A stretch of DNA of 64,000 nt from Candidatus Gastranaerophilaceae bacterium (lineage in GTDB: Bacteria > Cyanobacteriota > Vampirovibrionia > Gastranaerophilales > Gastranaerophilaceae): NCBI GenBank assembly GCA_045645765.1, contig JAZRJK010000014.1, forward strand, positions 10,819 to 74,818, in the 5' to 3' direction. How positions within the stretch are numbered: position 1 is the first letter of the stretch; each line of letters begins with the position of its first letter. Shown piece after piece: positions 293 to 61,077 of the stretch. The notes beneath the pieces were generated by a model. That model worked only from the letters and a program-made list of their open reading frames with translations. It was not told the DNA's origin and did not search any database. Position numbers and translations under genes: made by a program.

Positions 293-2173
293 TTAAATTC
301 TTTGCCTAAAAGCATTCCCTTTTCTGTCTTGAACAATATTCGGAGTGTCAATTTCAAAAACATATGCATCAGCAGGAGCTAGATCGACCCTTAGTTCATT
401 TTCTGCAACTTGAAACTCACTTTCTTCACCGTAAATAGGAGCAATATTTTTTAGTTTTTGAGATTCTTTTAAGCCTGGAATAATTATTGTTCCGGTCATT
501 CTTTCGTTTGGATTTTTATTCGCAACAACTAAGGCTGTTCTTCCACTATTATGTCTTGCATAAGTTATGATTTGATCTGCAGTATCTCCCAATTTATCAA
601 GAGTAATAAAAATACTATTTTTATCAGCAAATAAATCCTTATTTTCATTTCTCATTTTTAGAGTTTCTGTCATTACCCTCCCAATATCTGGGTAATCTCC
701 TCCAGGTTTTCTTGAATGATTAAAAATATCCATTTTATTAGCGTGATGATCCATTTCATAATATGGAACCTTTACGATATTTTCACCATAATCCTTTGGA
801 GAATATTGATAGTCATGATAACCTTCTCTTTTTTCTATAGGAGATTTCCCTTCTTCAATAGCTTGTTCTAAACTAATCACATTATAGGTTACAGTTTCAT
901 CATCATCTTTATGAGAATATTGATAGTCATAGTAATCTCCTGATTGGAAACCGTCAACAAAGTAAGGGTTACACATCGGAATTGTAGATTGAAGAATTGT
1001 TGTCATTTTACAGAAATTTTCTCCACCATGAAGCATACTTGATACATCATCATGAGTTAAAAAAGAACCGATACATGACCTTCCAACAGGAAGTCTGTGC
1101 GACATATCAAGATTTAGTTTAATATAATCAATGAATTCTTTATTTGTTTTCCATTCATGGAATATATGATACTGTCCATAATACTCATCAAAACCAGACC
1201 TTAATAAATCCTCTGGTCTATCATAAGGCATATTAACCTGAGGAGATGCACATTCATATGTGTATGTCTCTGCTAACCATGCAAACTCAGGATCCTTTTC
1301 TCGAGAATAAGGTATTAATATACTCCAAAATTCCGTAGGTTTAGCTCTAGCTACGTCCGCACGAATACCATCTATACCTAAATCTATACAAGCATCTACA
1401 TATTGTTTATGCATTTCAAGAAGTTTAGGGTTCAAAGTTCGTTTTGTTTCATCTTCCCAAGGCTCAAACATTCTAATATCAGCCCAACCTTGAGGAGTTT
1501 TATCTTCTCCATTTCTGCCAAAAGCCATTAACTCAGGCTCAGCTTCAAACCACGCTATTGAAGCACAACTAGGCAAATCTAGCATCACCTTAATATCACG
1601 TTTATGACACTCATCAATAAAAACCTTAAATTGTTCTGAAGGAGATCGTGGATCATCTTTTTCAATTAAAACTGGATCTATTGCTAAAGCTCCATCAGCT
1701 TCAAGAAATCTTGCAGGTGAATATAAAGAACCTGCTGTTCCCATTGCATTTTTTAACCCCATCGGATGAATTGGCAATACGTGAATAGTATTAATACCTA
1801 AATCTTTAAGCTCATCTAAACGTTCACTCGCGCTTAAAAAAGTCCCAGGCTTTTCTCCTTTTAAAATTGAAATTTTTTCATCACCATTTACATCTTTTGC
1901 GGTAAATGTTCTCGGTATAATAGCCATCATAACGGATTCATTATTTTTTATCATTGTACGTAAATTATTTTTATAATTTACATTTGTGACTTCTTTTTTG
2001 TTTTCAACTTTTTGAACTGTTGACTTATTAACAAGAGATTGATTCTCTAAATATGCTTGAAGCAATTCTTCACTATAATTTTTTGCAGGTAAGGTCTCTG
2101 CTTTAAATATAGGAGAGCTATTATATTTAAAAGTTTTAATAGTATTTAAGGATAAATTATTTATTAAAATCAT
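293..2173 (-). CDS. GH13 alpha-amylase-family glycoside hydrolase with N-terminal extension
   Basis: LDELKDLGINTIHVLPIH; catalytic regions GIDGIRADVAR (Asp), WLAETY (Glu), FLTHDD (His-Asp). Confidence 0.85.
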   Translation of the reverse strand: MILINNLSLNTIKTFKYNSSPIFKAETLPAKNYSEELLQAYLENQSLVNKSTVQKVENKKEVTNVNYKNNLRTMIKNNESVMMAIIPRTFTAKDVNGDEKISILKGEKPGTFLSASERLDELKDLGINTIHVLPIHPMGLKNAMGTAGSLYSPARFLEADGALAIDPVLIEKDDPRSPSEQFKVFIDECHKRDIKVMLDLPSCASIAWFEAEPELMAFGRNGEDKTPQGWADIRMFEPWEDETKRTLNPKLLEMHKQYVDACIDLGIDGIRADVARAKPTEFWSILIPYSREKDPEFAWLAETYTYECASPQVNMPYDRPEDLLRSGFDEYYGQYHIFHEWKTNKEFIDYIKLNLDMSHRLPVGRSCIGSFLTHDDVSSMLHGGENFCKMTTILQSTIPMCNPYFVDGFQSGDYYDYQYSHKDDDETVTYNVISLEQAIEEGKSPIEKREGYHDYQYSPKDYGENIVKVPYYEMDHHANKMDIFNHSRKPGGDYPDIGRVMTETLKMRNENKDLFADKNSIFITLDKLGDTADQIITYARHNSGRTALVVANKNPNERMTGTIIIPGLKESQKLKNIAPIYGEESEFQVAENELRVDLAPADAYVFEIDTPNIVQDRKGNAFRQRI

Positions 2174-60006: not shown

Positions 60007-61077
60007 TTAGGAATCAATTTTTCCTGTTTTTAACCGACTAGCTTTTCTTGCTTCTTTTTCTAAGATATTTGACCAATACCCAGAGAAAGGATTTAATAAA
60101 TTCATTCCTGCCATTACAGGGTATTTTAAAGCAGCTTGATAATATTCTTCTGCTTTTATTTTTTCTTTTTCTGATAATGGTCCACGTTTCGCTAAAGCTT
60201 TTTTATAATGTTCTACATCAATAAGCATTGGAATATCTTCTGGTTTAGCTTGCGGATTGGTTATCATAATTTTAATTACTTTTATATATTTTTTTAAATC
60301 TACTTCGGCTCCGGTTATTGGGATTTTTATATTATCATATACACCTTGTTTATCATTATTAATATCTTTTATAATATCTTTAAATTGAGCTAAAGCTAAA
60401 GGATTTTTCTTGACAAACTGGACTACAGGATAGATACTTACATAATTGAGTTTTTCTAAACCATTATCAAGCCCTGCAATCATTTCAAACTGTCTTGCGT
60501 GTTGAAGCTCATGTTTCATGTATTTTTCTATTAATTTTTTTCCAATGGGATCATGAAGATAATTTTTATTAATTTCAATAACACCACTAAGTGAATTATA
60601 CTGTGCTGCTATTAGCATACTACGCAAATTGCTATCAGATAATTTTGCACTTGTATCACTACCATATTTCTCTAAAAATTCTTGAGGTTTTGCAGATTTT
60701 TTATTAATTATTCTATTCTGCCAATTTTGCACAGTTATACCAAACGCAATTCCTCCGGCGATTGCAGCACCTATAGCTAAAATTATTTTATTTTTGAATG
60801 CTTTTTTAAGCTCTGGCGTTGGGAAATCAGATTTTTTCTTTGAAAGAATCTTAGCAAAACAAGCAAGTTCTCCAAGTAATATAATTCCTAATCCTCCAAA
60901 ATATGCAGTTGGAGAGCCAATTGTCTTTGATAAAACCCCTCCATTAAGCCTTTTTTCTTCTTCTTTATTTAAATCAGTAATAAATTGATTTGCAGAATAG
61001 GGTGGCGGATTAAATAATTTCCCACCACTTTTCTGTTTGAAATTTGGATTTGTAATATTATTGTTTAAACCTAACAT
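60007..61077 (-). CDS. membrane protein with HExxH zinc-metallopeptidase motif (cassette 3)
   Basis: Two TM helices; KHELQHARQ; distal LEKEAR. Confidence 0.7.
   Translation of the reverse strand: MLGLNNNITNPNFKQKSGGKLFNPPPYSANQFITDLNKEEEKRLNGGVLSKTIGSPTAYFGGLGIILLGELACFAKILSKKKSDFPTPELKKAFKNKIILAIGAAIAGGIAFGITVQNWQNRIINKKSAKPQEFLEKYGSDTSAKLSDSNLRSMLIAAQYNSLSGVIEINKNYLHDPIGKKLIEKYMKHELQHARQFEMIAGLDNGLEKLNYVSIYPVVQFVKKNPLALAQFKDIIKDINNDKQGVYDNIKIPITGAEVDLKKYIKVIKIMITNPQAKPEDIPMLIDVEHYKKALAKRGPLSEKEKIKAEEYYQAALKYPVMAGMNLLNPFSGYWSNILEKEARKASRLKTGKIDS

Follow-up and report, generated by a model that had tools for sequence, protein, structure and literature searches.

An N-terminal phenylalanine-box tag on unrelated proteins of a gut Gastranaerophilales genome, and its tentative link to a reduced flagellar-type export apparatus

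We analysed a stretch of 64,000 nucleotides (nt), hereafter the window, which corresponds to bases 10819-74818 of contig C14 in an assembly of 2.08 Mb (31% G+C, 91 contigs; this genome is coded G000 and C-numbers denote its contigs). The genome is that of a gut member of the Gastranaerophilales, non-photosynthetic Cyanobacteria also called Melainabacteria, and one protein of the window has close relatives in Gastranaerophilales/Melainabacteria genomes from the guts of humans, ruminants, horses and others. Two features of the window are considered here. The first is a short peptide, termed the tag, that stands at the N-terminus of otherwise unrelated proteins and ends in a box built around a phenylalanine (the Phe box). 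The second is a type III (flagellar-type) export cluster encoding FlgF, FlgG, FlgB, FlgC, FlhA, FliH, FliG, FliF and FliE, which an earlier reading of the letters alone (the sequence-only reading) had correctly recognised. The same reading had proposed that orphan proteins of the window share an N-terminal leader of the form (P/I/V)xF(K/G/T), possibly marking substrates of a dedicated secretion route.

Results

A tight form of the motif is concentrated at protein N-termini

The peptides on which the proposed leader was based were all found at the starts of the open reading frames (ORFs) given for them. A leader shared by unrelated proteins proved genuine, but not in the definition as written, which occurs at N-termini at chance level whether position bins, the rest of the proteins or shuffles serve as control. 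Among the 1936 ORFs called genome-wide by a simple longest-ORF rule, [PIV].F[KGT] was found 0.033 times per ORF in residues 1-20, as compared with 0.021-0.038 in the later bins of 20 residues. A non-circular test was restricted to contigs other than that of the window, with the rest of the proteins and shuffled N-termini as controls; here the first 40 residues held 114 copies for 98 expected, and the shuffled N-termini 126 +/- 11.

A tighter motif, on the same contigs, was enriched five-fold over both controls. We observed [PIVLT][NST]FK[GAS] 23 times against 4.5 expected (Poisson p = 5.5e-10), and in the shuffles the count was 3.5 +/- 2.0, never above 9. A pattern built from the window examples only, [PIV][SNI]FK[AKEQ], was found 8 times against 2.9 expected outside the contig of the window (p = 0.01), and P[SNIT]FK and [NS].[NS]FK were 4-5x commoner in the first 30 residues. 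Furthermore, a position matrix spanning -8 to +4 around FK placed 28 of its 31 best matches within the first 45 residues, which contain 14% of all residues.

The tag is bipartite, poor in acidic residues and devoid of a Sec-type core

Listing of the matches revealed a family of alike N-termini (MKVQAINTNNYQQNKPSFKA, MINKINNINFKG, MQINNSSYNNKNFKA, MLLPISYSNQPNFKA, MRINNINSNLNFKG). After the Lys column had been dropped from the matrix and obvious false matches and true pilins taken out, the curated set comprised 46 tagged proteins, about 2.5% of the proteins of the genome. The tag opens with Met-(K/R/Q)-(I/V), position 3 being mostly Ile or Val, continues with a stretch rich in Asn, Ser, Thr and Gln that is nearly free of Asp and Glu, and closes with (I/V/L/P)-(N/S/T)-Phe-(K/Q/G/T)-(G/A/S). 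The distance from Met to Phe is most often 10-13 residues and in some tags extends to about 30. The two residues following the Phe are nearly never hydrophobic, and the second is mostly Gly, Ala or Ser. Relative to background, the segment from Met to Phe shows a 3.5-fold enrichment of Asn and one of about 1.8-fold for Gln, Pro and Ser (Ser 1.7-fold). Concomitantly, Asp/Glu fall to 0.18 of background, a depletion of about five-fold, and Gly (0.25 of background), Ala, Leu and Met are also depleted.

In agreement with the claim that these proteins lack Sec signals, none of the 46 tags contained, in the first 40 residues, a window of 12 residues with a mean Kyte-Doolittle value of at least 2.0, a feature present in 395 of the 1936 ORFs genome-wide (20%); membrane-like segments appear later in the chain in 11 of the 46 proteins. 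A Tat signal would show S/T-R-R-x-F-L-K and then a hydrophobic region, but no Arg pair precedes the Phe in the tags; in the tagged protein of family GH77 a pair follows the Phe (F-Q-R-R-L-K), with no hydrophobic region behind it. The list of tags shows no double-glycine leader motif, in which G-G or G-A would follow a stretch of the type L-S-x-x-E-L-x-x-I. Three other candidates were discarded. The class III signal of type IV pilins is G|F-T-L-x-E ahead of a hydrophobic helix, and the true pilins of the genome (MKKNGFTIAEALIVLG...) are distinct from the tags. The flagellins start with MLSINTNLSSLIAQ, and just one tag (MLSINSINNINY...) resembles them. Processing of the Prp type, in which the ribosomal protein L27 would carry the same extension with an end of F-F|A, is unlikely because L27 begins here with MAHKKGMGS and is not extended. 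Neither Pfam nor NCBIfam contains a model for the tag, and a full-text literature search returned no description of it. The tag is a real, non-Sec, lineage-specific N-terminal feature that is apparently undescribed in the literature.

The tag is carried by unrelated proteins and conserved across the order

When the tag was removed, 40 matrix-matching proteins fell into 37 groups unrelated by BLAST. The domains recognised in tagged proteins include a GH77 4-alpha-glucanotransferase (2e-24), a GH13-like protein, two acetyltransferases of the GNAT type, an AAA ATPase that also bears a membrane segment, a HExxH protein and a DSP-PTPase, whose matches include the polymorphic-toxin model PF22785. 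Most other tagged proteins had no family match in Pfam or NCBIfam. Judged by these domains, much of the tagged cargo looks effector-like.

The GH77 protein offers an internal control, the same genome encoding a MalQ paralogue without the leader. Its orthologues and paralogues in 40 relatives from several families of the order retain the tag (for instance MKICNIERNINFQRQLK, MKIQTINQISFGRELK and MQIGGNNTLSFGRAFT). In an alignment of 13 sequences with a mean identity of 37%, M1 and F12 are invariant. Among 16 orthologues the spacing from Met to Phe is 11 in 13, the box reads F-x-R-x-L in all 16, and the Phe is encoded by TTT in ten and by TTC in six; the second residue after the Phe is here Arg, not a small residue. 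The HExxH protein of the window (ORF 60007-61077) provided a second, independent alignment: in 20 homologues F13 is at least 90% conserved with variable flanks, and H189, E190 and H193 of the HExxH motif are invariant. Hence in both families the Phe is invariant or almost so, while its flanks vary. Since both Phe codons are used and Asp/Glu are depleted five-fold despite their A-rich codons, selection would act on the protein and not on the DNA, and the alignments indicate that the tag is conserved across the Gastranaerophilales at the protein level. Identical tags were observed in one pair of adjacent genes, C29:3933 and C29:4464.

The tag was also found in a flagellin-less genome of another genus, G079, whose first 400 kb gave seven N-terminal matrix matches, that is 0.45 per 1000 residues compared with 0.10 internally (MQILNNNQNTNFTGA and MQISAISTPNFSGRR are examples). 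Outgroup genomes were examined as samples of 200-400 kb. The nearest outgroup family, f11, showed a few ambiguous tag-like N-termini in 200 kb. The samples of G181 (GC 46%), which belongs to another order and bears FlhA2, the FlhA type of the window, and of G210, which has no FlhA, yielded no N-terminal matrix matches; those of three further FlhA2-bearing genomes of other orders, G194 (GC 34%), G178 (GC 37%) and G192 (GC 50%), yielded weak, non-tag-like matches only. A generic low-stringency filter took 2-3% of ORFs in low-GC outgroups without discrimination and was not used.

The tagged genes share a promoter box

Upstream of the tagged genes GCAAAAAA is enriched (12/46 against 63/1612, p = 3e-7). 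It belongs to a longer promoter element, TAGCAAAAAA(W)TATTTTTAC-N3-GTTTT followed by a -10-like box, which can be written in short as TAGCAAAAAA..TTTAC..GTTTT. About 30 good copies are present in the genome, most of them ahead of tag-like N-termini, and an automated count of the association gave an odds ratio of 11 (p = 8e-8). In G079 the box precedes 9 of 10 tagged genes. Because the box is shared and recurs in another genus, the tagged genes can be taken as one conserved, co-regulated set, a regulon defined here by its putative promoter.

In about ten genes the ATG follows the box at a distance of exactly 35-36 nt and no Shine-Dalgarno (SD) sequence is seen (e.g. C51:7532-8146, C28:22964, C72:37990), a distance at which the mRNAs are probably leaderless, so that the start codons are confirmed. 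Tagged genes also include ones whose SD site is strong and whose 5′ leader is long. A variant box, TTTTGTAACAAAAAAGTCAATTTTT...AAATACTTTATATAAATATA, stands ahead of four orphan genes in a row in the window (57467-62842) and of an 829-amino-acid (aa) gene at 29460 (box region 29380-29459). Moreover, the genes with starts at 58036 and 59628 have near-identical upstream DNA over about 110 nt.

Tagged proteins of the window

Seven ORFs of the window had been put forward as carriers; we class four of them as clear members, two as probable and one as doubtful (Table 1). Matrix scoring of the window bore out the statement that its housekeeping genes do not carry the tag.

Table 1. Coordinates of the tags, promoter boxes and reduced export apparatus in the window
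Feature	Sequence	Position	Strand	Remarks
Tag of the 626-aa GH13-like protein (ORF 293-2173)	MILINNLSLNTIKTFKYNSSPIFKAET	2099..2173	-	Matrix 15.4; Phe at residue 23; clear member
Tag of the 896-aa protein (ORF 2157-4847)	MAIKSIQYNLNTYKNPSFKKEG	4788..4847	-	Matrix 20.2; clear member
Tag of the 342-aa membrane protein (ORF 4850-5878)	MIKVLAPIQNQINFKE	5831..5878	-	Matrix 15.5; clear member
Promoter box	TAGCAAAAAAATATTTTACACTACTTATTATAAATAG	5897..5933	-	55 nt upstream of the start of ORF 4850-5878
Second, reduced apparatus ('T3SS-2')		15731..25893	+ FlgF2, FlgG2, FlgB2, FlgC2; - FlhA2, FliH2, FliG2, FliF2, FliE2	Candidate reader of the tag; context only
N-terminus of the 647-aa protein (ORF 32034-33977)	MKINAQELLLINKNMKFGE ... 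NNIAFQGAS	33798..33977	-	Matrix just 6.5 at IAFQG; promoter box 77 nt upstream; probable variant member
Promoter box	TAGCAAAAATTTTTTTTACAGTTTTTAAG	34018..34054	-	Upstream of ORF 32034-33977
Tag of the 220-aa protein (ORF 36368-37030)	MAKIIKVGSQNPTFTS	36983..37030	-	Low matrix score; conserved in homologues; probable member
VNFKA in the 413-aa protein (ORF 58387-59628), residues 83-87	VNFKA	59368..59382	-	Matrix 5.5 at residue 85; doubtful, internal copy
Tag of the 356-aa HExxH protein (ORF 60007-61077)	MLGLNNNITNPNFKQ	61033..61077	-	Matrix 21.9; clear member

The GH13-like protein has a weak match to the Pfam alpha-amylase model (E = 1.5e-4) and one to the NCBIfam model MalA (2.8e-9). The 896-aa protein carries a membrane-like segment near its C-terminus, at residue 858, and the 342-aa protein, the product of the first gene in an operon of three tagged genes, has such segments at residues 69 and 301. 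For the 220-aa protein, PSFKA had been cited as an instance of the leader; this peptide is not conserved in homologues, and the true tag is MAKIIKVGSQNPTFTS, as the homologues from ten other genomes keep an N-terminus of the form M-x-(I/L)-x-I ... (I/T)-F-(T/N/K/R). The family is patchy, occurring in 11 of 41 genomes. The VNFKA of the 413-aa protein is placed after a region rich in Gln, Asn and Tyr.

The HExxH protein, which has two membrane segments besides its motif, belongs to a rare family, for which a set of 5.8 billion proteins contained 29 clusters. The AlphaFold2 model of this family reaches a mean predicted local distance difference test score (pLDDT) of 87, but over residues 1-20 the score is just 42-51 and no secondary structure is met before residue 29, so that the tag is predicted to be disordered. 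A fold search with the folded part found no relative in the PDB (best E = 0.98).

Other genes of the window were noted in passing. Region 38569-55721 encodes a 5050-aa protein whose N-terminus resembles filamentous haemagglutinin, and the adjoining 608-aa gene on the opposite strand is likely to specify a two-partner-secretion transporter, both judged from the N-terminal sequence only. The 189-aa orphan at 57467-58036 has the variant box and no tag; it gave a weak match to Pfam DarT, an ADP-ribosyltransferase of single-stranded DNA, at E = 4.5e-4, below the family cut-off.

The export cluster belongs to a reduced apparatus found throughout the order

The genome encodes two complete export gates. 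One consists of FlhA1, FlhB1 and FliPQR1 (C28); the other combines FlhA2 of the window with FlhB2 (C28:13546) and FliPQR2 (C72). Besides the cluster of Table 1, the gate loci are C28:5978-11107, C28:13546-14613 and C72:41264-43467. One tagged gene adjoins FlhB2. Twenty genes match Flagellin_N; among the flagellins are giant forms of 571-1445 aa with near-identical N-termini (MLSINTNLSSLIAQNSM), e.g. at C65:44171-48508.

A gene of the FHIPEP (FlhA) family was present in all 151 genomes of the order sampled, and many genera have the FlhA2 type alone. Five genomes with only this type, two of them single contigs, are flagellin-less. A core of FliE2-FliF2-FliG2-FliH2-FlhA2 and FlgF2-G2-B2-C2 is syntenic in the flagellin-less genomes. 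FlgI was not found in the four that were tested (G079, G116, G049, G097), which gave two rod-type matches only. In line with this picture, a 2026 preprint puts the share of Gastranaerophilales with complete flagella at about 25% and describes the other 75% or so as retaining a subset 'postulated' to secrete. Beside the reduced cluster in two flagellin-less genera, in G116:C1:1692000-1711999 (at 4517-8397) and G097:C4:172500-192499 (at 16871-18397), lie genes for proteins of 508-632 aa starting with MGLSASQARLLSLTQRINNNE or MGMAASQARYLGLTARKTN, which could represent a distal structural protein of the reduced machine or one of its substrates. An FKG in FliE2 of the window (start MFKG) was rejected as a tag, since it is not conserved and the orthologues read MSSFYPQYDL.

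Co-occurrence of the tag with flhA had been proposed in the sequence-only reading as a check. All the sampled genomes of the order have FHIPEP and the flagellin-less G079 is tagged; the 200-400 kb samples of FlhA2-bearing genomes from other orders showed no clear tag. As G079 carries the tag and no flagellin, a type III machine that reads the tag would have to be the reduced one.

A free-standing paralogue of the FlhA cytoplasmic domain lies next to tagged genes

The genome also encodes a stand-alone paralogue of the cytoplasmic domain of FlhA (FlhA_C), a protein of 492 aa at C41:63589-65067. Its residues 143-491 match PDB entry 3mix (E = 1e-22), and an extra domain of about 140 residues precedes them. 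We found the paralogue in 46 of 46 genomes of the order, in nine families, and also in the nearest outgroup family f11; it is absent from five further families of the class. The tagged GH77 gene lies 22-42 nt downstream of it, on the same strand, in 7 of 10 genomes, and two more tag-like genes stand next to that GH77 gene. In G000 itself, two tagged genes adjoin the paralogue. A second stand-alone FlhA_C paralogue was noticed at C9:40674-41894, among phage- or defence-like genes.

Discussion

A sorting signal for the reduced apparatus is tentatively proposed

We tentatively propose that the tag serves as a sorting signal, not cleaved off, which hands proteins to the second, reduced flagellar-type apparatus encoded in the window. 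This machine would comprise MS ring, export gate and rod and have no hook, filament or P ring. Reception may be performed by the order-wide FlhA_C paralogue or by the FlhA2/FlhB2 gate, and the tag would then be comparable to the N-terminal signals that type III substrates carry, except that its consensus is unusually well defined. The connection between tag and type III export is circumstantial and falls somewhat short of an even chance. A further-reaching version, in which the free-standing FlhA_C paralogue reads the tag as the substrate signal of an unrecognised flagellum-derived export system, a paralogous machine of MS ring, gate and rod present throughout the Gastranaerophilales, non-motile genera included, is somewhat unlikely. 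Were it true, the substrates of a type III-like secretion system would be predictable from sequence, and the secreted arsenal of a lineage widespread in human and animal guts would be defined.

Several observations weigh against a role in type III export. The promoter box was not found upstream of the reduced-apparatus operons, whose promoters look sigma-28-like: TAAA-N15-TCCGATAA at 25918-25950 on the minus strand, 24 nt before the ATG, for the FliE2 operon, and TAAAG-N15-GTCGATTA at 15678-15706 on the plus strand for the FlgF2 operon. The rod proteins of the reduced apparatus and FliE2 have no Phe box and no matrix score. Orthologues of FlhA2 with 59-68% identity exist in other orders whose samples of 200-400 kb showed no clear tag, and within the order co-occurrence is uninformative because all its genomes have the apparatus. 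No outer-membrane-spanning part of the reduced apparatus was recognisable in the flagellin-less genomes, and in most genera no component crossing that membrane could be recognised among the predicted parts of the machine. Membrane segments downstream of the tag in 11 of the 46 proteins, and internal copies of the Phe box within Asn/Lys/Ser-rich linkers of a few proteins, also fit poorly. Finally, the Met-to-Phe spacing of 10-13 residues is much shorter than the roughly 30-35 residues of the early flagellar export signal, and the F-x-x-x-hydrophobic pattern of that signal is not significant over the 46 tags (position F+4 hydrophobic in 48%, background 37%, p = 0.09).

Other explanations of the tag

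In the main rival explanation the tag would be a sorting or processing signal of other machinery, such as a leader peptidase cutting F-(K/G)|(G/A/S), a new transporter or a loading system for vesicles, type III export being irrelevant. The Phe box, with its small residue at +2 and its avoidance of hydrophobic residues at +1 and +2, resembles the site of a protease or a receptor; the tag is limited to the order while the reduced apparatus is older, and the promoter of the regulon is unlike that of the apparatus. We consider this explanation somewhat unlikely, as no peptidase or transporter gene was seen adjoining the tagged genes, the double-glycine motif is missing, L27 has no N-terminal extension of the Prp type, and the +2 residue of the GH77 family is Arg.

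Less probable is that the tag acts inside the cell, either as a degron or adaptor motif for proteolysis of the Clp/FtsH type or as a docking peptide gathering co-regulated enzymes at one site. Many of the cargo enzymes (GNAT, AAA ATPase, phosphatase) require cytoplasmic cofactors, both ends of the HExxH protein would be cytoplasmic given the layout of its two membrane segments, the genes are co-regulated and the internal copies of the box are located in linkers. Against these points stand a cargo list similar to secreted-effector arsenals and a tag composition typical of type III signals; moreover, we know of no degron that spans about 50 families and is conserved order-wide.

A by-product of nucleotide constraints, be it A/U-rich unstructured 5′ coding sequence suited to leaderless or weak-SD mRNAs or a recombining 5′ cassette, is improbable. 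Such an origin could account for the ten or so tagged genes with the box 35-36 nt from the ATG, for the A/U-rich codons of Asn, Lys and Ile, for the identical tags of the adjacent C29 genes and for the repeated upstream DNA of the cassettes at 57-63 kb noted in the earlier reading of the window. However, it leaves unexplained why the Phe is retained by both TTT and TTC at a fixed spacing, why Asp/Glu are five-fold depleted although GAA and GAU are A-rich, why strong-SD genes with long leaders are tagged too, and why the tag peptides vary in sequence and length among families. Chance likeness of N/K/I-rich N-termini in a 31% G+C genome, suggested by the chance-level loose motif and by the yield of the low-stringency filter in low-GC outgroups, is almost certainly wrong in view of the enrichment of the tighter motif over both controls, the Phe conserved among orthologues, the association with a specific promoter box and the outgroup samples that gave either no N-terminal matrix matches or weak, non-tag-like ones.

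The Gastranaerophilales are common, uncultured gut relatives of cyanobacteria. The tag and the promoter box together provide a concrete list of candidate substrates (phosphatases, acetyltransferases, protease-like proteins, glycosidases), and FlhA2, FlhB2 and the stand-alone FlhA_C paralogue are indicated as candidate receptors. If the link to type III export holds, the tag would be one of the few type III-like signals known by a consensus, and effectors could be predicted from it across the whole order. If the link fails, what the tag marks is still a system of sorting, processing or regulation that has not been described.

Comparison with known systems

Classical type III signals, of flagellar and injectisome substrates alike, are located at the extreme N-terminus, are disordered, have no sequence consensus and are rich in Ser, Thr, Asn and Ile with few acidic residues. 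Synthetic Ser/Ile signals for YopE were reportedly the subject of work by Lloyd et al. in 2002. Like such signals, the tag is an extreme N-terminal peptide of about 10-30 residues, predicted to be disordered and without a hydrophobic core, with much Asn, Ser, Thr and Ile and little Asp/Glu; it is found on effector-type enzymes, and every tag-bearing genome has an export gate. Unlike them it has a consensus, the Met-x-(I/V) start and the invariant Phe box at a preferred spacing. The candidate machine, known here from its genes, also differs from type III systems in having no needle, hook or filament in most genera.

In chlamydial Inc proteins an N-terminal type III signal is followed by a two-lobed hydrophobic hairpin. 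A similar arrangement, the tag and then two closely spaced membrane segments, is seen in several proteins, e.g. 60007-61077 and 4850-5878, although they have no sequence similarity to Inc proteins. To our knowledge, neither an intracellular lifestyle nor an injectisome has been described for the Gastranaerophilales.

The export signal of early flagellar subunits (rod and hook) consists of a small hydrophobic N-terminal signal and an F-x-x-x-hydrophobic motif that binds the cytoplasmic domain of FlhB (FlhB_C), joined by a linker of about 20-30 residues or more. This two-part signal is said to go back to Evans 2013 and Bryant 2022. The tag is likewise bipartite, with a hydrophobic position 3 and a later conserved Phe, and F-x-R-x-L in all 16 GH77 orthologues has the same form. 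It differs in its shorter spacing, and the rod proteins of the reduced apparatus of this very genome score nothing with the tag matrix.

Secretion of non-flagellar proteins by a flagellar apparatus is known for the Cia, FlaC and Fed proteins of Campylobacter and for YplA of Yersinia, and it has been suggested that in Buchnera, a non-motile symbiont of aphids, the basal bodies serve as protein transporters. The resemblance lies in a flagellar-type gate retained without a filament and in non-flagellar proteins with N-terminal signals that are not of the Sec type. In contrast to those cases, the reduced apparatus is in this genome a separate, paralogous system beside a complete flagellum, and its candidate substrates are distinguished by a recognisable consensus and a common promoter box.

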